IMG/VR virus record: IMGVR_UViG_3300037439_000266
Location: 269 to 64,268 of that record
DNA: 64,000 bases
From: a virus
Lineage: Duplodnaviria > Caudoviricetes
Strand: one strand, 5' to 3'
The position numbers and the translations under genes are program-made. Shown here one piece after another: positions 15,500 to 55,855 of this stretch. The number at the start of each line of letters is the position of its first letter. Position 1 is the stretch's first letter. The notes under the pieces were generated by a model. That model saw only the letters and a list, made by a program, of their open reading frames with translations. It was not told the DNA's origin and did not search any database.

Positions 15500-15913
15500 T
15501 TAGTTACCCTCCCCAGAAGTTTCGAGGTTGACGTCCGGGATGAGCACCTCGGGACGGATCATGATCTCGTGGTGGAAGGGGTCGACCTCGAGCGCGTCGA
15601 GCTGCTCGGCCAGGTACGTGGAGTTGTCGGAGAGGCCGTAGAAGTGCTTGAGGTAAGCGCCCGCGTCGTCACCCTCGGCGACCTTGCAGGTGATTTCGAG
15701 CTGGTTGCCCTCGTCCACGAGATTGCAGAAGCCCTCGATGGTGAGGACGGCCTGACCGGTGATCCCGTTGATGAACGTGATCTCACGGTAGACCTTGAAG
15801 TTGTCGGCGGCGGTGGAGAGGTTGTCCGAGGCGGTGGTGGCCTCGTCGGAGCAGGCGGTGAGAGCCGTTCCGGCCAGGGCCGCGACCAGGATGAGCTTCG
15901 CTACGTTTCGCAT
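15500..15913 (-). CDS. Phage lipoprotein, 137 aa, embedded in the tRNA array
   Basis: Lipobox LTA-C; ASDNLSxAADNF...ITFINGIT motif typical of a phage lipoprotein family. Confidence 0.8.
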   Translation of the reverse strand: MRNVAKLILVAALAGTALTACSDEATTASDNLSTAADNFKVYREITFINGITGQAVLTIEGFCNLVDEGNQLEITCKVAEGDDAGAYLKHFYGLSDNSTYLAEQLDALEVDPFHHEIMIRPEVLIPDVNLETSGEGN

Positions 15914-15940
15914 TGAGTCTTCCTTCTGTCGATTCGGGGG

Positions 15941-16029
15941 TGTAGGCAGTCCGGAATCGAACCGGTCCCCCTTGCAGGGGCGCAGCTTTCGCTGACTGGA
16001 CGCACCAATACCCAGCACTCCGTGCCTAC
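15941..16029 (-). ncRNA. Aberrant tRNA-like RNA (acceptor and T arm, extended D arm, GAAA hairpin, CTGCAAG hairpin)
   Basis: GTAGGCA/TGCCTAC stem; CCGG-TTCGATT-CCGG T arm. Confidence 0.65.
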
Positions 16030-16030
16030 G

Positions 16031-16105
16031 TAGTCCGTGCGGGACTTGAACCCGCAAATGCCCAGATTGAAAGTCTGGTGGCTCTACCTATTCGCCCAAC
16101 GGACC
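16031..16105 (-). tRNA. tRNA-Glu(TTC)
   Basis: Cloverleaf. Confidence 0.9.
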
Positions 16106-16210
16106 TTAAACACCCGCGAGTGGCGCTCGATGGCAGTCTAACGCCAACGCAGGTGCGACCTCTGCCAAGGTCTTGAAGCCAATTCAGGTTTACAAGCCTG
16201 ACCGCTCCCG

Positions 16211-16283
16211 CTCCCCGGGGATGGCTCGAACATCCAACCTCGCGGTCCAGAGCCGCGCGTTCTTCCAGTTGAACTACCGGGGA
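16211..16283 (-). tRNA. tRNA-Gln(CTG)
   Basis: Cloverleaf. Confidence 0.9.
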
Positions 16284-16295
16284 CTAACTGTTGCG

Positions 16296-16368
16296 CTGTC
16301 CATCGAGGGGTCGAACCTCGCACCTCCCGAGCCAAAATCGGGCGTTCTTCCAACTGAACTAATGGACA
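16296..16368 (-). tRNA. tRNA-Gln(TTG)
   Basis: Cloverleaf. Confidence 0.9.
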
Positions 16369-16489
16369 AGGACCTCGGGGCGGGACCGATGGCTGTCAGT
16401 TCCGGGATCCGAGGTTCGACCCCCAGCCAGGGGTCTGGGGCCGACAGCGGGGTTAAGGGCGTGGTGTCCCCGGCCTGCTGCGGACCTTG

Positions 16490-16562
16490 CTGCCTGGGGA
16501 GGGCTCGAACCTCCGACCTCGCGGTTAACAACCGCTCGCTCTGCCAACTGAGCTACCAGACA
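16490..16562 (-). tRNA. tRNA-Asn(GTT)
   Basis: Cloverleaf. Confidence 0.9.
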
Positions 16563-16773
16563 CTGTGTAGGGGCCCCGGCCCACTCCTGCCACAGGCAGG
16601 TCGGGACCCCGTTAGACCGCGTTTCTCGTCCAGGTGCGTGGTCCATGCCTGGTGTTCGCAGGTAGGCAGTGTTGCCCAGGTCCCTCTTCAACGGGTGGCC
16701 ACCCTCCAAGGTTCGGGCCTCTGACGGCTCCTGCGGCTCACGACACCTTCGGTACCAAGGTGCCTATCTTGCG

Positions 16774-16846
16774 TACACCGAGCGGGATTCGAACCCGCGT
16801 TCTCCTCATTGAGAGTGAGGTGAGATTACCGCTACTCTACCGGTGC
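16774..16846 (-). tRNA. tRNA-Glu(CTC)
   Basis: Cloverleaf. Confidence 0.9.
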
Positions 16847-16999
16847 TCGGACCGGCCGGTGCAGACGACCGGTCCCCGGGCCTCCGCTTCCAACAGAACG
16901 CCCGGCTATGAAGGCCGCCTGCGGAATCAGGTGGGCCGTTGTTGTTCGAGCTGGTCTATCTGAAGGCCACGGTGGCTCCGTGTCGATGCGCCTTCATTG

Positions 17000-17071
17000 C
17001 AGGGCAGGAGGGGTTCGAACCCCCGACCTTCGGTTTTGGAGACCGCTGCTCTTCCACTGAGCTACTACCCA
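17000..17071 (-). tRNA. tRNA-Trp(CCA)
   Basis: Cloverleaf. Confidence 0.9.
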
Positions 17072-29668: not shown

Positions 29669-30103
29669 ATGGACTGTATTAACGGACACAAGAACCCCGA
29701 ACGCTACGCCAACGGCACCTGCAAGCAGTGCACCAAGGACAAAGCTGAGGAGTGGAGGCGCGACCCCGTCAACTGGGAGAAGCGCCGGGAAACAGAGCGA
29801 CTCCGGGCCCAGCGCCAGCGTCAATCCGACCGAGAAGCAGCCCTGACCAAATACGGCCCCGGCTGCCGCTGCTGTGGCGAATCGATCGAGACCTTCCTTA
29901 CGATTGACCACGTAGACGGGGGCGGGGCCGCACATCGAAAAGAGATTTTCGGCCCCAACTACTCGGGACGTCGTCCGGCGGGTAGCCGCACCTACCGCTG
30001 GCTGCGCCTTAACAACTACCCCTCAGGATTTCAGGTCCTGTGCTTCAACTGCAATTATGCCAAGCACGCTCTCGGAGCGTGTCCTCACCAGAAGGGCAAG
30101 TAA
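29669..30103 (+). CDS. HNH-type endonuclease 2 (same family as HNH 1)
   Basis: RBS aaggag; CRCCGE...IDH...LCFNCN. Confidence 0.85.
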   Translation: MDCINGHKNPERYANGTCKQCTKDKAEEWRRDPVNWEKRRETERLRAQRQRQSDREAALTKYGPGCRCCGESIETFLTIDHVDGGGAAHRKEIFGPNYSGRRPAGSRTYRWLRLNNYPSGFQVLCFNCNYAKHALGACPHQKGK

Positions 30104-30104
30104 G

Positions 30105-31286
30105 ATGGAACGTGGCAGGATCTCCGTCGTAGTCGGAGGGCAATTCGGGTCCGAGGGTAAGGGGGCCGTTGCCGCCTGGATCGGACGAACGGCAGTCAAT
30201 GAGGGTCGAGAGGTGTTGGGGGTGCGCGTGGGGGGGCCGAATGCTGGCCATACTACGTACGGCCGCTGCCCCTACGAGATCGATAAGCAGGACAACCCTC
30301 AAGCGAGCTGCGCCAAGTGCAACGAGTTCGGACACCCGTGGGCGCTGCGCCAGGTGCCGGTCGTGGCAGTCACGAACCCCGAGGCGGGGCTGGTCATCGC
30401 GGCCGGTTCCGAGGTGGACCCCGAGGTCCTGGCCACCGAACTGGCCCTGCTCGACCGGGCCGGTTACCGGGCCACGGAGCGCTTGGTCCTGGACGGCAAC
30501 GCGACCCTCCTGATGGAGTCGCACCGTTCGGCCGAGGCCGGGAAGGAGCTGCAGAAGCGGCTCGGCTCCACGGCCAAGGGAATCGGCGGGGCCCGGGTCG
30601 ACCGGCTCTGGCGCGAGGCCCGCACCGTGGCCCTCCACGACGGTTTCCCGCCAGAGCTCTACGGGGACCCGGACATCTCGATGGACACGGCCGACCTGAT
30701 GGAGCGTGTCCTGGCCGAGGGCGGCCACGTCATCATCGAGGGGACCCAGGGCTACGGGCTCGGTCTCCACACCGAGTACTACCCCTTCACGACCTCGGGT
30801 GACTGCCGCGCCATCGACTTCCTGGCGCAGGCCGGGCTCAGCCCTTGGCTCCCCGAAACAGAACTCAAGGTCGTCGTCTGCTTCCGGCCGTTCCCGATCC
30901 GCGTCGCCGGGAACTCCGGGCCGATGGGGGTCGAGACCACCTGGGACAACCTGGGGCTCCCGCAGGAGCTGACCACGGTGACCCAGAAGGTCCGTCGCGT
31001 CGCCGAGTGGGACCCCGCCCTGGTCGAGACCGCAATCCGCGCCAACGGCGGCCTCGGCCCCCACATGGTCCTGGCCCTCACCATGGCCGACCACGTCATC
31101 CCGGAGCTGAAAGGCATGTCCCGGTTCATCGAGGTCGGGGCCGACAATGAGGCGGCCATCCAGAAGTGGGTCGAATCCTCGGGGCTGTCCCCCGAGGTTC
31201 GGGGGGCGCTGTGGGGCCAACTGGGCTACGGCCGCACCCTGCTGGGAACCGGGCCGACTACGATGTTGGGAGACCTTCCCGAATAA
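30105..31286 (+). CDS. purZ: Diaminopurine synthetase, PurZ/PurZ0-type (adenylosuccinate synthetase homolog)
   Basis: GQFGSEGKG (Ser for PurA catalytic Asp), GPNAGHT, EGTQG, TTVT..RR, TMAD. Confidence 0.85.
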   Translation: MERGRISVVVGGQFGSEGKGAVAAWIGRTAVNEGREVLGVRVGGPNAGHTTYGRCPYEIDKQDNPQASCAKCNEFGHPWALRQVPVVAVTNPEAGLVIAAGSEVDPEVLATELALLDRAGYRATERLVLDGNATLLMESHRSAEAGKELQKRLGSTAKGIGGARVDRLWREARTVALHDGFPPELYGDPDISMDTADLMERVLAEGGHVIIEGTQGYGLGLHTEYYPFTTSGDCRAIDFLAQAGLSPWLPETELKVVVCFRPFPIRVAGNSGPMGVETTWDNLGLPQELTTVTQKVRRVAEWDPALVETAIRANGGLGPHMVLALTMADHVIPELKGMSRFIEVGADNEAAIQKWVESSGLSPEVRGALWGQLGYGRTLLGTGPTTMLGDLPE

Positions 31287-43523: not shown

Positions 43524-43952
43524 CTACACGACACCCGCCGGGGTCCCACTGATGCGGAACCCGAGCGGCCTGCACTCGTCCGCCAGGGCGTGCGCCAGCC
43601 ACGGCCGGGCCCGAACTCCGGGGTGGTTGACCGACTTGCGGTACAGTACCTGGCCTCCGGCCTCGAATCGGAGATAGCCGTCGCCCCGGGCTCGAATTAC
43701 GTGCGGTCGGGCTCCCGCGTGCACGGCCATGGAGTAGTTGGCGTCGCTGATGACGCGGCCAACGACCCTACGCTTCCCCGCTCGCTTGTTCATCCGGTGC
43801 AGGGCCCGCAGGTTTCCCGTGTCCACTGGCGCTGTCACTGACGCTCGGCTGAACGTCCTGACCATCCCCAGCGTTACGAGTCGGTCGCCGTGGCGCCGTG
43901 CTACGGCGTCGGCTTGCTGCTGGTTTACTTTTACCTTGACCAGACTTGCCAT
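43524..43952 (-). CDS. HK97 gp10-like tail completion/neck protein
   Basis: APVDTGNLR, YA/S..VH.G, HPG..A.PWL. Confidence 0.8.
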   Translation of the reverse strand: MASLVKVKVNQQQADAVARRHGDRLVTLGMVRTFSRASVTAPVDTGNLRALHRMNKRAGKRRVVGRVISDANYSMAVHAGARPHVIRARGDGYLRFEAGGQVLYRKSVNHPGVRARPWLAHALADECRPLGFRISGTPAGVV

Positions 43953-44202
43953 TGTCGACCTCCTCAGGGTCGGGGGCCGGTTCTACCCAGCCACTGGAGC
44001 CGTCCTTCGCCGCCGGAAGGTCAGGCAAGTTCGGGTAGACGAGAGGCGCGACCGGAACGGGGTCGGGGAGATACTCAACCACCTGCAGGTAGCCTGCGTT
44101 GATCATGGCGTCGACGTGGGTCGTTCCGAGCTCGACGTCCCCCTCGTCGCCTCGGCGCAGCCCCATCACGTTAGCCACGGCGCGCACGCGCACTTGTCCC
44201 AC
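43768..44202 (-). CDS. Small virion-associated protein with disordered tail overlapping the next gene
   Basis: Strong RBS gaaaggagg. Confidence 0.55.
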   Translation of the reverse strand: MGQVRVRAVANVMGLRRGDEGDVELGTTHVDAMINAGYLQVVEYLPDPVPVAPLVYPNLPDLPAAKDGSSGWVEPAPDPEEVDNGKSGQGKSKPAASRRRSTAPRRPTRNAGDGQDVQPSVSDSASGHGKPAGPAPDEQASGEA

Positions 44203-44929
44203 GGCGGCCTCCTTTCAGTTCGTTGGTCTCGTACGGGCTGGGCGTCGGGAAGCGCACCCGCAAGGCCGCGCCAGTCGAGCCGGACCACGCTTGGTCCGAG
44301 GTCGACAGGAACGAGCCCCGCAGGGTGGCGTTTCCCCACTTCGAGTGTACCTTGCAGTCCTGGCTCCGCTGGCCTCCGAGCTGCGCCCAGTTGCCCACCC
44401 AGGTGCGCTTCATATAGAACCGAGGCTCCAGCTCCCGCACCCCGTGCAGTGCCTCCAGGGCTCCAGTGAGCTGGGGTCGCTGGAGGGGAAGCGGAAGATG
44501 AAGCTCGTAGGTGAGCAGGCTGGGCACGTCGAAACCGAGCCGCTCGAAAGCCCGCCGAGTGTGGCGGCCTCGCGCGGCCCAGGCGCGGAGGCCGGGCTTG
44601 CGCTCGTAGTAGGCGATTCGCTCATCGAGACTCCCTCGGTGGAACAGCGGGACCTCGCGCATCGGGTGCAGGAGGAAGTAGTCGTCGTTGAACAGGTAGA
44701 ACGACTCGGGGCCGTTCTTCGCCAGCTCCTCGAAATTGCGCCAGGTGTTGGAGTGCTTGGGTCCTCGTTGGGCCACGGGCAGAAACTGCACGTCCTTGAC
44801 CCACTCGGGCTTGTGGCCCACAATCCAGACCCGGTCATGCCGCAGGTTTACCAGGCTCCGGAGGCTGTAACGCAGCTGGTCGTTGTGCTCCCCGGGCCCC
44901 ACCAGGTACACGATGTCGCGCCTAGGCAC
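44171..44929 (-). CDS. Stealth-like sugar-1-phosphate transferase / glycosyltransferase
   Basis: DIVY, LRYSLRS, V.IVG..P.W, FYLFNDD. Confidence 0.7.
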   Translation of the reverse strand: MPRRDIVYLVGPGEHNDQLRYSLRSLVNLRHDRVWIVGHKPEWVKDVQFLPVAQRGPKHSNTWRNFEELAKNGPESFYLFNDDYFLLHPMREVPLFHRGSLDERIAYYERKPGLRAWAARGRHTRRAFERLGFDVPSLLTYELHLPLPLQRPQLTGALEALHGVRELEPRFYMKRTWVGNWAQLGGQRSQDCKVHSKWGNATLRGSFLSTSDQAWSGSTGAALRVRFPTPSPYETNELKGGRRGTSARARRG

Positions 44930-45644
44930 GCCGGACCGCCTGACGGGCCCGGCCCCGGGAGCGCCCAATTGCCGCCGCGGGTGGCGAGACGGGCACCACG
45001 GGGCCGTTCCAGTTCAGCCCAGAGGCGGAGGCGTGCTCGCCGATGAACCGGTAGGCGTAGCGCCCCCGCCAGCCTCGGCCCTCCACCAGGGACGGCGCTT
45101 GGCGGTGCGACACCAGCGACGGCCACGGGTAGTAGACCGGAATGCCGAGCTTCATGCAGGCGGCCGAGATCCGGGAGTCATAGTTGGGGATATCCTCGAA
45201 CTCGTCGCCGATCGCCACGATCTCCTCGATCCGGGCGGTCGGCACTACGACACCCACCCCCCACATCAGTTCGTTCATCCGTACCCAGCGCAGCGCGGGC
45301 TGGGTGCGCTGGACCCTGAGCCAGATAGGCTTCCACGCCCGGGTGCGCCCCAGGTACAGCCCCAGAATCGAGTTCCGGGGAGCCGCGGCTAGAGCCTTCT
45401 CGACCCCGGCGGGCAGGTCCCGGCAGACCACGGCGTCATCCTGAATCACCATGTGGTGGGTCTTGCGGGCGTCGTAGGCCAGCAGGGAGCGGCGGCCGGT
45501 GTCCCAGCGGTCGTTGATCTGGTCCCAGACCACCTGGACCGGGCGGCCGATCCGGGCCCGCAAGCCGGGGATGTAGGATTCGCGCCTCGGGTGGGCCATG
45601 ATGGCGACGGACACCGAGAACTTCGAGTTGCGCCTAGTTGCCAC
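44922..45644 (-). CDS. GT-A fold glycosyltransferase
   Basis: IMAHPRR, HMVIQDDAVVC, PSLVSH. Confidence 0.7.
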   Translation of the reverse strand: MATRRNSKFSVSVAIMAHPRRESYIPGLRARIGRPVQVVWDQINDRWDTGRRSLLAYDARKTHHMVIQDDAVVCRDLPAGVEKALAAAPRNSILGLYLGRTRAWKPIWLRVQRTQPALRWVRMNELMWGVGVVVPTARIEEIVAIGDEFEDIPNYDSRISAACMKLGIPVYYPWPSLVSHRQAPSLVEGRGWRGRYAYRFIGEHASASGLNWNGPVVPVSPPAAAIGRSRGRARQAVRRA

Positions 45645-46335
45645 TGGGAGCCCCCCAGCCTGCACCCTTGCTGCGGGCGAACCCGAAGGTTGGCGTCTTG
45701 CCGAATTGACCGAAGCACTTCCACTTCGGACCGAGGAACCCCTGGATCTCCGCACGCTCGCCTTCGACGTAGAGCAGCGGCCGGTCCCGTTCCAGGGTCT
45801 CGACCGCCCCGGCCAGGACGTCCATGGCCGACCCCTCCACGTCGATTTTGATGAGCGCGGCTCGGCGTTCTGGGTTGAACATCCGGGCGGTCTCGGCGAT
45901 CGAGTCCAAGGTGACCACAGCGACGGAGCCGCCCTCGTCCGGCACGATTCGACCCATCCCGGAGTTGCCGGGGGGCCCAGGCTCGACGCGGCCCCGCCCC
46001 TCGGCGGCACCCAGGGCTACGTTGTAGATTTCGACCTGGTCGGCCTTGGCGTTCATGCGCACGTGCGAGTGCAGGTGCACGGCCGACTCCAGGTTGGGCT
46101 CCACGGCGACGACCGACAGACCGCACACCTTGGCGAACCAGAGAGTGTGGTTGCCGATGTGCGCGCCGACGTCAATGACGTAGCCGCCCTGGCCCCGGAG
46201 TCGTTGGTAAGCGTCTTCCAGGAGGTCCTGCTCGTACCAACGTCGGGACTTCAGGATCACGCGACCGATATGGTCGTCCTCGCTGACGTTCATAACCGCC
46301 GACCGGCGATGGGCAGTCAAATTAACTTGTGTCAT
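45634..46335 (-). CDS. FkbM-family SAM methyltransferase
   Basis: VIDVGAHIGNHT, VEPN, IKIDVEG. Confidence 0.9.
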   Translation of the reverse strand: MTQVNLTAHRRSAVMNVSEDDHIGRVILKSRRWYEQDLLEDAYQRLRGQGGYVIDVGAHIGNHTLWFAKVCGLSVVAVEPNLESAVHLHSHVRMNAKADQVEIYNVALGAAEGRGRVEPGPPGNSGMGRIVPDEGGSVAVVTLDSIAETARMFNPERRAALIKIDVEGSAMDVLAGAVETLERDRPLLYVEGERAEIQGFLGPKWKCFGQFGKTPTFGFARSKGAGWGAPSGN

Positions 46336-46961
46336 CAGTACCCCAGCTCCTCGGCCATGGCCATCGTTTTCCTCTTGGTGGGGCCCGTTGGGAGTTCGTC
46401 CCACTCCAGTCGCCGGGGCTGCCCGCCCTTGGTGTTCCAGTTGGGCGGGACGTTGGTGGGCAGCATCGCCCGGTAGAGGGCCCCTTCCAGCCGAGGCCGA
46501 CCGGAGTCTTGCAAGGCCAGCCCCAGCTGGGCCTCGTCGATCTCCTCGATCCGGATCCGGAGGGCCGCCAACCGCTCCACTCGTCGGTTCCACTGCAGCC
46601 AGTACCGCATGGCCGCGATGCGCGGGTCAAGTTCTTGGAGCAGCTCCGGGCACCAGAACCGCATGTACCGCCGGATGTTGGGGTAGCGGCTCACTCGCGA
46701 CCGGAGCCACGAATCGACCCAGGTCCGAGGGTCCCGCACCAGGTGCACCACCAGGACCTCGGCCAAGGTGCTGCCCTCCAGGAATGGGGCGGCGAACCAC
46801 GAGGACTCTACGGTTGCAGGCTCCAGCCGCCCCTGCTCCTCGGGCGTCGCCCGCCCTCGGAAGATCCGCTCATGGCCGCAGTCGACCCCGGCCAGGGTCA
46901 GGACCTGGGCGACGTACCCGGTTCCGGACCGCCCGCATCCGGTGAACACTAGGGGCTTCAT
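46335..46961 (-). CDS. Sulfotransferase-family protein
   Basis: TGCGRSGT (5'-PSB), HLVRDP..VDS, IRIEE. Confidence 0.8.
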   Translation of the reverse strand: MKPLVFTGCGRSGTGYVAQVLTLAGVDCGHERIFRGRATPEEQGRLEPATVESSWFAAPFLEGSTLAEVLVVHLVRDPRTWVDSWLRSRVSRYPNIRRYMRFWCPELLQELDPRIAAMRYWLQWNRRVERLAALRIRIEEIDEAQLGLALQDSGRPRLEGALYRAMLPTNVPPNWNTKGGQPRRLEWDELPTGPTKRKTMAMAEELGY

Positions 46962-47626
46962 TGCCAACGCCCCGTCCGGCTCCGCTTTCCATTCCAGTGG
47001 TGGACCGCCACGCACTCGGGCGGCCACGGCGGACGCGACTTCGGCTTACCGAGGTCTGACCACAGGTAGGGGTAGAACCTCTCTGGGCCGAGAAACTGCA
47101 TCGGCTCGCCGTTTTCGAAGTGCAGCTCCGTCATGAACTGCGGCCCCGACAGTCGGGTCGGGGTCTCGCCCCGGCGGCTGTGCGCCACCTCGGGTAGCCG
47201 CCGAATCAGAGTGTCCATGAACCAGTGACCCTGGGGGGACCCCATCAGGCCGTTGGCGGCCCACTTGCCGGGCACCTCCCAGGCGGCGAATGGTCGGTCC
47301 TGGTCGATTTCGCCGAACCACGAGTCCAGGGGCTTGAGGGGCTCGAAGTCCATGTCGATCCATACGCCGCCGAAGTTGCGCAGCAGCTCGTACCGCACTA
47401 CGTCCGACTTGAACTGTTCGGCGCGGTCGCGGCCGACGTACTCGCGGGGGTTGTGCCACTGGTGGGCGTTGTCGAGGTCGAACTGGCCGAGGCTCGTGGG
47501 GGTGTCGCCCCACAGGTAGAGAGTCCAATCGGGGTTCATCTCGGCCCAGGCGTTGCTGTACTCTTGGTACTGCCGGGGGACGGGGCTGCCGCCCCAGTAC
47601 TGGTGAATCACGCGCGGAATCGTCAC
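46958..47626 (-). CDS. GT32 / DXD sugar-binding glycosyltransferase
   Basis: IPRVIHQYW, KSDVVRYELL..FGGVWIDMD. Confidence 0.9.
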   Translation of the reverse strand: MTIPRVIHQYWGGSPVPRQYQEYSNAWAEMNPDWTLYLWGDTPTSLGQFDLDNAHQWHNPREYVGRDRAEQFKSDVVRYELLRNFGGVWIDMDFEPLKPLDSWFGEIDQDRPFAAWEVPGKWAANGLMGSPQGHWFMDTLIRRLPEVAHSRRGETPTRLSGPQFMTELHFENGEPMQFLGPERFYPYLWSDLGKPKSRPPWPPECVAVHHWNGKRSRTGRWQ

Positions 47627-48168
47627 GAGGTATCGCCTACCCACTCCGGGGGCATGGGCCAGCCAAGGGCCACGGCTCCGCCCAACAGTTCAATGTTGAA
47701 AGATTTCCGGAAGTGCGCGAGGTCGGGCTGCCGGATCGAGGGGTTGACGAAGCAGTGCTTCAGGCCCTCCGCCTCGGCCGCCAGGAGAATCCGATCAGCC
47801 GCGAAGGCCATGTCGAGGTAGGGCATGAAGTCGATCTCGCCGGGGGCCTTGTACGCCTCGGGGTCGACGTGCAGCAGCAGGATCACAGGAGATCGGTGAA
47901 TCCATCCCACACCTCCGACCAGAAGCCCCCCGAGTCGGGCCCGGTCGTCGCGCGCCCGGACCTCGGCGACTTGGACCGCTTGGCGGTTGCACGAGCTGGG
48001 CGCGGTTTTCGCCGCCACCAGAATCCGTTCAAGCGTTTCATCGCTGACCTCCGCCGAGTCGAAAATTCGGTCCGAGTGACAACGCGTCATCAGGTCCCGG
48101 AGCACCTCGGCCTTCCGCGCTTGGTGCTCTAGGTACCTTCGCTGGTAGATGTCATCGTCCTGCCCCAC
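47623..48168 (-). CDS. Nitroreductase-family flavoprotein (leaderless, -10 TAAAAT at 48175-48180)
   Basis: R.S.R.F, APSSCNRQ, AEAEGL..C, ALGWP. Confidence 0.85.
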   Translation of the reverse strand: MGQDDDIYQRRYLEHQARKAEVLRDLMTRCHSDRIFDSAEVSDETLERILVAAKTAPSSCNRQAVQVAEVRARDDRARLGGLLVGGVGWIHRSPVILLLHVDPEAYKAPGEIDFMPYLDMAFAADRILLAAEAEGLKHCFVNPSIRQPDLAHFRKSFNIELLGGAVALGWPMPPEWVGDTS

Positions 48169-48188
48169 CAGTCAATTTTACCTCACGG

Positions 48189-48767
48189 TCAAGGCGAGGG
48201 TGACTCACCAGGACTGTCGGAGGGGCTCTCGTCGGGCAGCTCCTCACAGCAATCGACGTACTCGGCGGCCACGGTGACCATCTGCGTTCCGCCCGAGCAG
48301 CGGCCCGAGACGGGCAGCGGGTTCCAGTCTCCGAGCAGGTAGGTGATGTCGAGGTCCCCGAAGCAGCAGATCACGGCTCGGCGCATCGCGGCGGCGTCCT
48401 GCATCTGCTTCTCGACCAAGGCTCCCCAGTCGTCGTTGCTGGGGATGGCGGTGGCGTCCGGGGTCGGGGCGCAGCGGACCGCGCCCATCTCCATCTCCAC
48501 GGCCCACGCGCGCGGGGCCGGGCAGCCGATGGCGACCTGGTCCTGCGTCGGGAAGTCGTCGATCGAGGAGGGGAAGATTCGGTTGATTCGGACCCAGGCC
48601 AGGCCCGAGCAGCACTCGTCGTCGTAGATCGACAGCAGCGGGTCGACCTGCTGGCCGGGCCGGAGGCCGACCGAGGCGGGAGGGTCGAGCACCAGGCTGA
48701 TCTGGTCTTCCAGACAGGCCACCAGAGCCTGCGCCATTGGGAACGCTACGAGGTCTGGATAGGACAT
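48189..48767 (-). CDS. Virion protein (possible tail terminator), ends DESPSDSPGESPSP
   Basis: Position after adaptor; typical of mycobacteriophage cluster-B-like layouts. Confidence 0.6.
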   Translation of the reverse strand: MSYPDLVAFPMAQALVACLEDQISLVLDPPASVGLRPGQQVDPLLSIYDDECCSGLAWVRINRIFPSSIDDFPTQDQVAIGCPAPRAWAVEMEMGAVRCAPTPDATAIPSNDDWGALVEKQMQDAAAMRRAVICCFGDLDITYLLGDWNPLPVSGRCSGGTQMVTVAAEYVDCCEELPDESPSDSPGESPSP

Positions 48768-49628: not shown

Positions 49629-50327
49629 TCACGGCGACTCGATGGTCAGCGGCTGGCAGCCGCACAGAGGCTCCGGCGGAGCCACCTGGGTGAACATGAA
49701 CCGTCGTGGAGTCGAAGGTGCGATGGGCGTGATCATCGGCCCGGCGACGCCGAGGGCGTCGAGTTCGACGTCGTACGGCCCGGTTCCCCACGGGGTGCCG
49801 CGGTTGGAGGTGGCGCTGACCGTGAAGTTGATGCCCGCGTTCTCGATCGTGAGGTCCCCGAAGGAACCGCGCGCCAGGAACGGCATCAGGAAGTAGCCCC
49901 AGCGCTGCCCGCCCGGAGGGCAGGCGGCCGAGTTGGTGGCCGGAACCCGGCTCCACAGCTCCAGCGCGAAGAACGCCGAGGCGTAGGTCTCGTGGTCGGT
50001 GTCGAAGCCCGAGGTGTCGCCGTTGGCGTCGAGCACCAGGGGCGAGCCGGTCATCATCTCGTACAGGTCAGGGTCGACCTCGCAGAGCTGCACCTCGGCG
50101 TTGACGAAGTTCAGCAGCGGCTTGGTCTGGTCGTAGTAGCAGTAGTCCCCGTCCGCGTTCATCTGGTTGAGGACCGTGGGGGCCTCGACGTCGTCGGACA
50201 TGCCGACCGAGATGAAGCCCTTGGAGACGACTTGCGAGCATTCGCCCTCGACGGGCTCGCCGCACTCATCCAGGCGGGTGACCCGGATCCGGGTCCCTCG
50301 CACCAGCGGGTGACAGATGGTGGCCAT
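49629..50327 (-). CDS. Major tail (tube) protein, ends CGCQPLTIESP
   Basis: RG..IRVTRLD.CG motif. Confidence 0.85.
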   Translation of the reverse strand: MATICHPLVRGTRIRVTRLDECGEPVEGECSQVVSKGFISVGMSDDVEAPTVLNQMNADGDYCYYDQTKPLLNFVNAEVQLCEVDPDLYEMMTGSPLVLDANGDTSGFDTDHETYASAFFALELWSRVPATNSAACPPGGQRWGYFLMPFLARGSFGDLTIENAGINFTVSATSNRGTPWGTGPYDVELDALGVAGPMITPIAPSTPRRFMFTQVAPPEPLCGCQPLTIESP

Positions 50328-51651: not shown

Positions 51652-53505
51652 TTACGGCGACTCGATGACCGACGACGCCTCGCAGAGGCAGCCGCATGGG
51701 TCGAGACGAACAGTGAACACCCGGCTGATCGGGCACATCTGCATGACCGCCCAGCCGTCCTCCACGAAGATCGCGGTGTACTGGTTGGTGGTCAGCAGGG
51801 TGCTGTCGTAGATGGTGTCGAGGTTGACGACGTCGGCCGTTGCCTTCAGCCAGGTACCCGCCGGGTACATGATGAAGCGGACCTCGGTCGGCAGCGCGGT
51901 CCGGGGGACCAGGCCACCCATTCCGCCGACTCCGCCGTCGCTGAACGCGTCCTGCCAGTCGTAGACGAAGCGCGGAACGAGGCGGCGAGCGGTGAAGAAC
52001 GACAGCAGCTCGGCGTCCGAGACCATCATCTCGAAGACCCCGCGCCGACGAGCGGCGGCAGCACGCAGCTGGGGGATCACCCAGTGCGGCAGGATCATCT
52101 CCATGGAAGTCGCGAATGGCATGCGGGCCCGGTAGAGGATGTCCTCGCGAGCTGCCTCCGCTGCGCTCAGCAGCGAGCCGAGGGCGTCGTCGCCGCCCGC
52201 ACCCAGGCAGTCCTCCATGGTGCCGCCGTCGACGGAACCGGCTTCGATTCCGGCGATGACACCCTGGTTGATCTTGTGGGCGAGGGCGATCATCGCACCT
52301 CGGCTGAACCGCTGCACGACCTCGGGGTAGCCGCGGCGCTGCAGCAGCCCTCCGGTGATGCAGACGTAGTCGACGCCGAGCCGGATGTCCTCGAATGGAG
52401 GACACGGGATCTCGGTGCAGACCTTCTCGGTCGGGATCGCGACCTCGGCCTCGGTCAGGTGGGTGTCACCTGCGTTGCCGATGCTGGTGAAGATGGTGCT
52501 GAAGTCGATGCCGCCGTCGATCGGGATGTTGAACCCGCCTCGGTCGGCCGTGACCTCAGGGACCGCCAGGAGGCCGTCCAGCGACTCCTGCTCGCACAGG
52601 TCGTAGATGGTCTCCGAAGGCGCACACCAGCCGGTGGCGGCGACGAGGTTTCCGGTCTGCTTGACCTCGGCCTCCAGAGCCGCGACCAGCGAGCCGCCCG
52701 TGAGGCGCTTCTCCGATACGGCCGACTCCATCGCCCGGAGGTTGAACTCCGCGCCGTTCTCCGAGGAGAGCCGCAGCTCGTCCGGGTACTCGCGCTTGAA
52801 GTTCACCGCCTGGTGACGGCTGAAGGTCTTCATCTTGTGGCGGTCGACGTTGCGGAAGCGACCGGCGCGGTCCACGTCCTCGACCGAGGTGACATCGACG
52901 TCGATGACCTTGGACGCCCGAGGAGCCTTGCGGATGGTCTTGTTCTTGCCGGTCATCGAGTAGGCGTCGAGGCGGTTCTGAACCACCCGGGCGGCCTGGC
53001 CGAAGCTGGTCAGCGGCGTCTGGGCGGGAACGCCCGGGACGTCCACGGCGGCGACCATCGAGGCCCGCAGGCGCGGGCTCTGAGGCTGTCCCTCGCGGAC
53101 GGGGGCCTGCGGCTGAGTGGAGCTGGCGACGTCGGCCACGCGAGGTGCGGCCGCCACGACGCCGGGGGCGACGGGCTCGACTGCTGCGGGGTCCGCGGCA
53201 GGCGGCTCGGCCACCTCGGGCTCGACGGGAGCCTGCGGCTCGGTGGGGGCCTCGGGCTCAGCCGGAGCGCTCAGCTCAGTCAGGCGGGCCTGGGAAGCGG
53301 CGAACCGGTCGCGGCGCTCGCGCTCGGCGACCACCGGCCCGGACAGCTCAGCGAGCTGGTCCATCTGCTCCACGACCTCTTCGGTCAGGGCGTCTCCCGT
53401 GAGGGCCGCGAATTCGGCTCCCACGGTGGCGAACTGTCCGATCAGCTCCTGGAGAGCCTGGTCCGACAGGCCCCGGAGGTTATCCGGAACGATTGGGAAA
53501 GTCAT
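51652..53505 (-). CDS. Major capsid protein with N-terminal scaffold-like domain, ends CGCLCEASSVIESP
   Basis: GWCAPSETIYD; HK97-type C-half. Confidence 0.9.
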   Translation of the reverse strand: MTFPIVPDNLRGLSDQALQELIGQFATVGAEFAALTGDALTEEVVEQMDQLAELSGPVVAERERRDRFAASQARLTELSAPAEPEAPTEPQAPVEPEVAEPPAADPAAVEPVAPGVVAAAPRVADVASSTQPQAPVREGQPQSPRLRASMVAAVDVPGVPAQTPLTSFGQAARVVQNRLDAYSMTGKNKTIRKAPRASKVIDVDVTSVEDVDRAGRFRNVDRHKMKTFSRHQAVNFKREYPDELRLSSENGAEFNLRAMESAVSEKRLTGGSLVAALEAEVKQTGNLVAATGWCAPSETIYDLCEQESLDGLLAVPEVTADRGGFNIPIDGGIDFSTIFTSIGNAGDTHLTEAEVAIPTEKVCTEIPCPPFEDIRLGVDYVCITGGLLQRRGYPEVVQRFSRGAMIALAHKINQGVIAGIEAGSVDGGTMEDCLGAGGDDALGSLLSAAEAAREDILYRARMPFATSMEMILPHWVIPQLRAAAARRRGVFEMMVSDAELLSFFTARRLVPRFVYDWQDAFSDGGVGGMGGLVPRTALPTEVRFIMYPAGTWLKATADVVNLDTIYDSTLLTTNQYTAIFVEDGWAVMQMCPISRVFTVRLDPCGCLCEASSVIESP

Positions 53506-53602
53506 GACTGCACATCCTCTCAGATGTCTCTGTCCCGGCCGGACCAAGGCCGACGCTGAATTTTCTTCCGGGCAAGCCTACCACGAAAGCGGTTTCGAAT
53601 TG

Positions 53603-55615: not shown

Positions 55616-55855
55616 CTAAGGGGACTCGTCGGGGTCGGGAAGGGGCTCGGGTGCCCCCTCCACCGGAATCCGGATGTGGTGAATGATGTCGTCGTCGTTG
55701 CTTCGCACCAGCACGCCGTTGGGGTCCAGCTTCACGCACTGGGCGGTTACCTCGCTGGCGGTGAGCTGCACAGCGATGGTCAGCTTGGGGTTGAGACCCA
55801 AGGAGTTCAGAATCGCCGCCAAGGTGGCAGGCGTGATCGAGGCCGGGATCGCCAT
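55616..55855 (-). CDS. 79-aa head-module protein, ends PDPDESP
   Basis: RBS gaggag. Confidence 0.65.
   Translation of the reverse strand: MAIPASITPATLAAILNSLGLNPKLTIAVQLTASEVTAQCVKLDPNGVLVRSNDDDIIHHIRIPVEGAPEPLPDPDESP

Follow-up and report, generated by a model that had tools for sequence, protein, structure and literature searches.

A six-gene cassette in the virion operon of a tailed phage predicted to build a glycan on structural proteins

The late virion operon of a tailed phage (IMG/VR virus record IMGVR_UViG_3300037439_000266) is interrupted by six genes, labelled here g1 to g6, whose predicted products belong to glycan-building and glycan-tailoring enzyme families. The stretch analyzed, called the window below, comprises 64,000 nucleotides and is nearly all of the 64,268-base record, which is rated complete by CheckV. 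The locus raises the question of which acceptor these enzymes act on and what product they could form. Virion proteins are quite probably the acceptor of the glycan built by the cassette. Its sulfated, methylated and phosphodiester-linked chemistry would follow from the enzyme families; for a final product that is both sulfated and phosphodiester-linked the chances are roughly even.

C-terminal serine tags and the predicted acceptor

The first-pass annotation of this DNA proposed that the phage decorates its own virion. This proposal is supported by the homology of g5 to gp110 of phage Che8, by IESP tags on two virion proteins, by the co-variation of tag and cassette in relatives, and by the soluble nature of the enzymes, which are not accompanied by export genes. 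Gp110 is essential for capsid glycosylation, as summarized in a citing paper (PMC12363180, citing Freeman 2023). The similarity of g5 to gp110 (blastp 4e-13, 27% identity over 129 aa) is accompanied by common membership in phrog_854, and Pas35 of Actinoplanes phage phiAsp2, the nearest isolate, is 34% identical to g5 (tblastn). No Pfam match was obtained for g5, and its comparison with PDB sequences, singly and as a six-sequence profile, gave chance matches only. The Atlas neighbours of g5 are clusters of viral glycosyltransferases (GTs), and a faint link to GT25 is seen in one of them (12% of that Atlas cluster). A (Q/E)(D/E)D motif is conserved, and a GT-A fold is plausible.

The major capsid and tail-tube proteins both end in IESP. 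Among 613 stop-to-stop open reading frames (ORFs) of at least 60 aa in six frames, ESP ends are found only in four virion ORFs, these two included (Table 1). Homologues of the other two in the closest relative, L003, end in ESPAESPSESP (phrog_810 protein) and DPAESP (small head ORF).

Table 1. Cassette genes, putative promoter and candidate acceptors (window positions; C-termini are given up to the stop codon; PAPS, 3'-phosphoadenosine 5'-phosphosulfate; SAM, S-adenosylmethionine; FMN, flavin mononucleotide)
Feature	Coordinates	Strand	Prediction	Basis or C-terminus
g1	47623..48168	-	nitroreductase-superfamily FMN enzyme, 181 aa	PF00881 1.4e-15
g2	46958..47626	-	GT32-type (Gly_transf_sug) glycosyltransferase, 222 aa, DXD = DMD	PF04488 1.5e-10
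g3	46335..46961	-	PAPS-type sulfotransferase-like protein, 208 aa	PAPS motifs and fold
g4	45634..46335	-	FkbM-family SAM methyltransferase, 233 aa	PF05050 7.6e-12; TIGR01444 1.2e-25; phrog_8156 2.6e-17
g5	44922..45614	-	Che8 gp110-like glycosyltransferase, ~230 aa	phrog_854 'glucosyltransferase' 6.6e-30
g6	44171..44929	-	minimal Stealth-family hexose-1-phosphate transferase (predicted), 252 aa	phrog_7999 1.7e-57
-10-like hexamer TAAAAT	48175..48180	-	possible leaderless promoter	6 nt upstream of g1 GTG, read directly
Major capsid (hexamer) protein	51652..53547	-	candidate acceptor	phrog_777 1e-123; ends CGCLCEASSVIESP (IESP)
Major tail protein	49629..50327	-	candidate acceptor	phrog_792 1e-80; ends CGCQPLTIESP
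phrog_810 connector-region protein	48189..48767	-	candidate acceptor	ends DESPSDSPGESPSP, several SP sites
Small head-module ORF	55616..55855	-	candidate acceptor	ends PDPDESP

In relatives drawn from IMG/VR and Logan, the tag, as read from predicted C-termini, varies together with the cassette type (Table 2). In L007, methyltransferases replace the sulfotransferase/FkbM pair, and the tags are TSP, VSP or GSP instead of IESP. The comparison was extended to 16 further Rosebush-like loci with a g6-type gene (mini-Stealth, described below). Serine occupies the last or second-last position in 25 of the 27 distinct capsid, tail-tube and phrog_810 tails (by our tally) and in none of the nine adaptor tails, tag counts being inflated by phylogenetic non-independence. 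Since the adaptor is buried in the neck, it provides a useful internal contrast.

Table 2. Cassette type and C-terminal tags in relatives
Relative	Capsid identity	Genes at the cassette site	Tags
L003	69%	all six genes, 57-85% identical	capsid and tail IESP, other two proteins ESP
L104	70% (partial, C-terminal 330 aa)	all six genes, 41-61% identical	capsid and tail IESP
L007/L004	55%	nitroreductase, Bro/KilAC gene, GT32, two class-I methyltransferases, two g5-like GTs, mini-Stealth	TSP, VSP, TSP, GSP
L005/L006	47%	no cassette at site	GS, AS
phiAsp2	52%	no cassette at site	SS, SP, GS

No membrane segment was found in any of the six enzymes (no hydrophobic 19-mer above 1.6). A Pfam scan of the 35 other window ORFs detected no further GT, priming transferase, flippase, transporter, adenosine 5'-phosphosulfate kinase, integrase or base hydroxymethylase, and lipid-carrier or export genes are absent among the ORFs scanned. 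Soluble enzymes expressed with structural proteins fit a cytoplasmic protein acceptor. Alternatively, the cassette could remodel a host envelope glycopolymer during infection, blocking superinfection or aiding release, and the virion would not be the target. Solved relatives and Pfam neighbours of the cassette enzymes do belong to exopolysaccharide or capsule synthesis (CpsY; PF05704 Caps_synth), and a g1 homologue in a Saccharibacteria genome adjoins a wall-glycopolymer cluster (GT2, epimerase, aminotransferase, LytR-CpsA-Psr). This alternative is nevertheless improbable: the enzymes lack membrane segments, the window ORFs scanned include no polyprenyl-phosphate priming transferase, flippase or transporter, the cassette genes lie within the late structural operon and are coupled to it, and the co-variation of the tags would be left without explanation.

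Phage glycosyltransferases often act on DNA, and the cassette could be supposed to hypermodify phage DNA, with sugars placed on modified bases in the manner of systems resembling those of T4 or Mu. The genome does appear to modify its DNA, since one of the 35 ORFs scanned is an adenylosuccinate-synthetase-like gene (PF00709 5.9e-27; probably at 30057-31286, plus strand). That gene, however, lies about 14 kb off, in the replication module and on the other strand, and the ORFs scanned include no base hydroxymethylase. Sulfotransferase, FkbM and Stealth proteins are not known as DNA-modifying families, and the characterized relative of g5 acts on the capsid. A DNA target is very hard to credit.

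Several points weigh against virion proteins as the acceptor of a sulfated glycan. The phage is uncultivated, and the exact residues glycosylated in Che8 are taken as reportedly given in the abstract of Freeman 2023 and in papers citing it. Cassette-less phiAsp2 and L005/L006 also possess C-terminal serine tags. Because these tagged relatives carry other GT and methyltransferase genes (two GT2 genes in the L005 record; pas33-35, after the tail genes, in phiAsp2), Rosebush, for which neither a GT2 match nor a shared tag was found, is the sole related GT-free control. Genes ending in serine make up 21.5% of 372 genes beside mini-Stealth and 10.8% of 83 genes in the controls L5, Bxb1 and Rosebush, an approximately two-fold difference (Fisher p=0.016). 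An enrichment calculated against amino-acid composition (p ~1e-25) was discarded as overstated once real control phages were used. Sulfation would presuppose that PAPS is supplied by the host. Finally, the closest structures of g3 include protein-tyrosine and 'activating' sulfotransferases, and the sulfate may not be placed on a sugar.

Two side observations concern the tagged proteins. A cysteine-rich motif stands just before the tag in the capsid (PCGCLC, 51652-51700), tail-tube (LCGCQ, 49629-49670) and phrog_810 (DCC, 48189-48250) proteins; it is kept in cassette-less L005 (GCC, VCGCQ, CDC) and phiAsp2 (GCC, CGC, CDC), and it might form a disulfide, bind metal or be modified in some other way. 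A 2H-phosphoesterase (2_5_RNA_ligase2/LigT) domain, unusual for a head protein, is present within the MuF-like head protein of relative L105 (5876-7801) and also in the L005 record (L097-L099).

The Stealth-like transferase and its nitroreductase partner

The Stealth-like nature attributed to g6 by the first reading is borne out by family profile search and by fold, although the single sequence scores below the Pfam cut-off (Stealth_CR2: 0.0055, 17.3 bits, cut-off 39.4) and phrog_7999 is annotated 'unknown function'. Several g6 homologues have a precomputed PF11380 match. In the 44-sequence family alignment, invariant residues are located in LRYSLRS, NDD, H-x-P and a C-terminal PS-x-YE. The family profile matches zebrafish GNPTAB (2.3e-10), human GNPTAB (1e-8) and CpsY of M. 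tuberculosis (6e-7) in PDB, with LRYSLRS, NDD and H-x-P aligned. The AlphaFold2 model of g6 (mean predicted local distance difference test score, pLDDT, 93) has CpsY as its best Foldseek match (1.4e-8), followed by GNPTAB, at probability 1.00. The modelled fold and the profile confirm the prediction of g6 as a minimal Stealth enzyme of ~250 aa. With the Stealth family (GNPTAB, CpsY, meningococcal capsule polymerases) it shares the fold, LRYSLRS, NDD, H-x-P and FP-x-PS-x-(Y/F)E. Unlike other Stealth proteins, the mini-Stealth proteins comprise ~230-250 aa, have no accessory domains and are encoded in phage virion operons, and g6 falls below the Pfam cut-off; their acceptor, too, may differ, being perhaps a protein-linked glycan or serine.

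Mini-Stealth is encoded in at least 507 IMG/VR viral stretches, with contig GC content of 31-72%. In Rosebush-like phages it is part of the virion operon, at the junctions phrog_810/tail completion, tail tube/adaptor or capsid/tail tube, with the exception of one pair (L032 and L039, where it lies between head genes on the opposite strand). Streptomyces phage TurkishDelight, whose capsid ends in STS and tail tube in VAS, carries it between the major tail protein and adaptor genes, one gene after a 678-aa glycosyltransferase. In Mycobacterium phage Fionnbharth, gene 6 (L008 1273-1959), annotated 'hypothetical protein' and situated just upstream of the terminase gene, is a mini-Stealth gene; other cultured cluster K-like mycobacteriophages also carry one.

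The nitroreductase gene claimed in the first reading was recovered as g1, well above the PF00881 cut-off (58.3 bits, cut-off 23.5). The closest solved structures among its PDB relatives are NAD(P)H:FMN oxidoreductases, largely uncharacterized, and no NCBIfam equivalog is reached by g1. The family is strongly conserved (mean column identity 56%, 28 invariant positions). The nitroreductase gene is the first gene of the cassette in L003, L007 and L104. A nitroreductase 53-56% identical to g1 is also encoded directly upstream of mini-Stealth, right after the major capsid gene, in L012, L041 and L101. The capsid of L012 is of the Mu gpT/Phage_capsid_4 type, and those of L041 and L101 (a prophage of Micromonospora sp. 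Llam0) are of the P22/Phage_capsid_2 type. Since the nitroreductase recurs beside mini-Stealth in unrelated phages, gene neighbourhood points to a conserved association with the Stealth gene rather than a chance insertion.

The C-terminus of the nitroreductase is itself conserved as WVGDTS and also ends in serine (window 47623-47631; L041 6456-6998; L101 7001-7543; L104 4262-4804), which could be a coincidence or could mean that the enzyme itself is modified. A role of the azoline-oxidase type, suggested by the CGC/CC motifs that precede the tags, was rejected, since the same motifs are present in cassette-less relatives; it is also disfavoured by the absence of a cyclodehydratase among the ORFs scanned.

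The recurrence of this gene pair allows a different distribution of tasks among the enzymes. Nitroreductase and mini-Stealth would form the core, Stealth would put sugar-1-phosphate straight on the C-terminal serine (Ser-O-phospho-sugar), and the other enzymes would elaborate this primer. In L012, L041 and L101, where the pair follows the capsid gene, no g5- or g2-like gene was found in the stretches fetched; their capsids end in DES or AES, the tail tubes in GGS or TGS, and several connectors in serine. Mini-Stealth occurs alone beside the capsid gene in L014 (capsid end AAS) and alone in Fionnbharth, whose capsid ends in GSGS and whose genome is without a phrog_854 glycosyltransferase. Against direct phosphoglycosylation, the known Stealth acceptors (those of GNPTAB and the capsule polymerases) are sugar hydroxyls, contigs of the L012/L041/L101 type are covered in part, so that GTs may lie elsewhere or come from the host, and the window possesses a gp110-like GT, the essential enzyme in Che8. 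This scheme is possible, though tentative. A similarly doubtful but conceivable generalization is that a compact nitroreductase and mini-Stealth module, present in many unrelated tailed phages, phosphoglycosylates the capsid and tail C-terminal serine and is extended in this phage to form a methylated, sulfated anionic glycan.

Sulfotransferase, other tailoring enzymes and the proposed reaction order

The sulfotransferase gene named in the first reading corresponds to g3, in which both PAPS motifs and a sulfotransferase fold are found, though its score is below the Pfam cut-off (PF13469 Sulfotransfer_3: E 0.064, 13.9 bits, cut-off 27). Only 13 relatives of g3 were found among 5.8 billion proteins. 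Across 13 homologues the 5'-phosphosulfate loop T-G-x-x-R-S-G-T (T7, G8, R11, S12, G13, T14) is invariant and the 3'-phosphate motif R-x-P-x5-S (R-x7-S; R76, P78, S84) is kept. The family alignment contains no Walker-A lysine, which argues against g3 being a kinase. In a Foldseek search with the AlphaFold2 model (pLDDT 91) the top 13 matches are all sulfotransferases (E ~1e-3), with 3-O-sulfotransferases first.

Structural alignment by VIA-align gives sulfotransferases for 50 of the 50 matches listed. TPST1 (Z 13.2, 185 aa aligned, root-mean-square deviation 3.7) belongs to a group with TPST2 and CurM/OLS at Z 12-13 over ~185 of the 208 residues; StaL, Teg12/14, Cpz8, SgdX2 and heparan sulfate sulfotransferases (2-O-sulfotransferase, Z 10.8) follow at Z ~10. 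Thus g3 resembles the small PAPS-dependent sulfotransferases (TPST1/2, CurM/OLS, StaL/Teg12/14, Cpz8, SgdX2) in nearly full-length fold (Z 10-13) and in the RSGT and R-x7-S motifs, and differs from them in low identity (13-20% in the best 22 matches) and in the Pfam score. Designer pentatricopeptide-repeat proteins, the best PDB matches of the g3 family profile, were discarded as summed repeat matches; the first real match is a sulfotransferase (0.0024). Motifs and modelled fold confirm g3 as a predicted PAPS-type sulfotransferase. Every examined context of its relatives is among phage structural genes; the more distant relatives belong to phage head modules, and one of these lies two genes ahead of a gene for a GT2 of 679 aa.

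The position of tyrosylprotein sulfotransferases as best structural matches (Z 12-13), level with the activating CurM/OLS enzymes and followed by SgdX2 and Cpz8 (Z ~10), could indicate that g3 acts on the peptide tag, where an acidic residue precedes the serine, or makes a transient leaving group for the flavoenzyme. The virion would then still be the target, and the product would not be a sulfated glycan. This is unlikely: the tag has no tyrosine, carbohydrate sulfotransferases match g3 as well (the heparan sulfate 2-O-sulfotransferase in VIA-align and 3-O-sulfotransferases first in Foldseek), and the nitroreductase mostly occurs without a sulfotransferase.

The remaining two assignments, a GT32 gene and an FkbM methyltransferase gene, hold for g2 and g4 by scores above family cut-offs. 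For g2 (PF04488, 42 bits, cut-off 23) the DMD motif falls within the matched region, and the closest sequences in PDB come from GT44 domains of the TcdA type and from the alpha-1,6-mannosyltransferase Och1. For g4 the scores are 46.1 bits for PF05050 (cut-off 22.7) and 90.6 for TIGR01444 (cut-off 37.7); no match was found among PDB sequences.

With virion proteins as the acceptor, the cassette would represent a cytoplasmic module for building and tailoring glycans, co-transcribed with the late virion genes and acting on a short C-terminal serine tag of the structural proteins of the phage itself. The acceptor would be the terminal IESP-COOH of capsid and tail tube and the ESP or SP repeats of two further virion proteins. 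The first sugar could be transferred to the tag serine by Che8 gp110-like g5, the leading candidate, or else by g6 or by TcdA/Och1-like g2. The chain would be extended by the GT32 enzyme. Then the Stealth enzyme could add sugar-1-phosphate from a uridine diphosphate sugar, forming a phosphodiester and releasing uridine monophosphate. O-methylation with SAM could be performed by the FkbM enzyme, and sulfate would be transferred from host PAPS by the sulfotransferase. The nitroreductase-fold FMN enzyme, genetically tied to the Stealth enzyme, may catalyze some redox step. The outcome would be an anionic glycan coat over head and tail.

Genomic setting and relation to known virion glycosylation

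All six genes announced by the first-pass annotation are present on the minus strand at 44171-48168 and, by GC3 frame analysis (GC content at third codon positions), lie within a late virion operon that runs on this strand from ~61350 down to 32882. PHROG matches give the order before the cassette as terminase, portal, MuF-like, major capsid, capsid pentamer-like, phrog_2322 connector-like, major tail, head-tail adaptor and phrog_810. The cassette is followed by a tail-completion/Neck1 gene, two small genes and a gene for a protein of 909 aa, probably the tape measure to judge from its position and from a tblastn match to annotated tape-measure genes. The location between head-tail joining and tail completion genes, also proposed earlier, agrees with the phrog_810 connector-region gene upstream and the tail-completion/Neck1 gene downstream. 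The order of the structural module (portal, MuF-like, capsid hexamer, capsid pentamer, major tail, adaptor, phrog_810) matches that of phiAsp2 and Rosebush; a megablast search with the region found no match in 50,697 phage records. The host is probably an actinomycete, likely of the Micromonosporaceae, because phiAsp2 is the closest isolate, homologues are encoded in a Micromonospora prophage and the GC content of the window is ~67%.

Translational coupling throughout the cassette, as claimed earlier, was found at three junctions with overlapping start and stop codons (g1/g2 GTGA, g2/g3 ATGA, g3/g4 TGATG), whereas at g4/g5 and g5/g6 it hinges on the choice of start codon. The claim of an own leaderless -10 was retained in part. 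TAAAAT is present in the window and TACAAT stands at the same place in L003, but L104 and L007 have no intergenic room for a promoter, their nitroreductase gene directly adjoining or overlapping the stop codon of the preceding gene; a conserved cassette promoter was rejected on this ground. A scan for consensus promoters and terminators found neither on the coding strand. An own promoter of the cassette is possible in this phage and is not a conserved property.

Several small features were observed around the cassette. L003 has an extra ORF of 163 aa (16568-17059) without Pfam match between its GT32 and sulfotransferase genes, which the window lacks. In L007 the nitroreductase and GT32 genes, midway along the virion operon, are separated by an antirepressor-type Bro-N/KilAC gene (15650-16528; PF02498 1e-17, PF03374 1.5e-21). 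The 218-nt 'spacer' after g6 contains an open frame with high GC3 (43768-44202, minus strand; ATG at 44166), which overlaps the start of the tail-completion gene in a different frame. Relatives L020, L021, L022 and L025 have a gene of 73-104 aa at this position, and the frame may represent a small gene that has escaped annotation, perhaps one involving an overlap or frameshift.

Glycosylation of the C-termini of capsid and tail-tube proteins by phage-encoded enzymes is described as established for Che8, Corndog and Myrna in papers citing the original work (PMC12363180, PMC11600133, PMC11256854, citing Freeman 2023), and in cluster O glycosyltransferase and O-methyltransferase genes are stated to modify capsid and tail tube (PMC11600133). 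Like these systems (Che8 gp108-110; Corndog and cluster O; Myrna), the window encodes soluble phage GTs and a methyltransferase, with g5 homologous to gp110. A C-terminal serine tag shared by capsid and tail tube is likewise present, GS in both Che8 proteins and ESP in the window, a likeness read from sequence. Beyond the Che8 type, the window adds a Stealth transferase, a sulfotransferase and a nitroreductase-fold enzyme. Its tag is Ser-Pro-COOH and not terminal Ser, and its cassette is located between connector and tail-completion genes and not at the genome end. In phiAsp2 there is no insertion at the cassette site, and a GT-methyltransferase-GT set (pas33-35) follows the tail genes. The cassette would thus be a variant of known actinophage virion glycosylation with new predicted chemistry.

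Virion glycosylation in mycobacteriophages was reportedly described only in 2023 and is said to shield particles from antibodies. To our knowledge, phage particles have not been described as bearing phosphoglycosylated proteins or sulfated glycans. The literature searched, outside which many subscription papers lie, contained no report of a Stealth, sulfotransferase or nitroreductase-fold enzyme acting on phage particles and nothing relevant on glycosylation in Fionnbharth.

If the predicted chemistry is true, phage particles can also bear phosphodiester-linked and sulfated glycans, and such strongly anionic coats could affect adsorption and aggregation of the particles, their survival in soil and their recognition by the immune system. 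The large family phrog_7999, annotated 'unknown function' and present in at least 507 IMG/VR contigs, would gain a predicted function. Serine as the final or penultimate residue of exposed virion proteins would provide a simple signature for particle-decorating phages, and cultured, genetically tractable phages are identified in which this chemistry could be tested.

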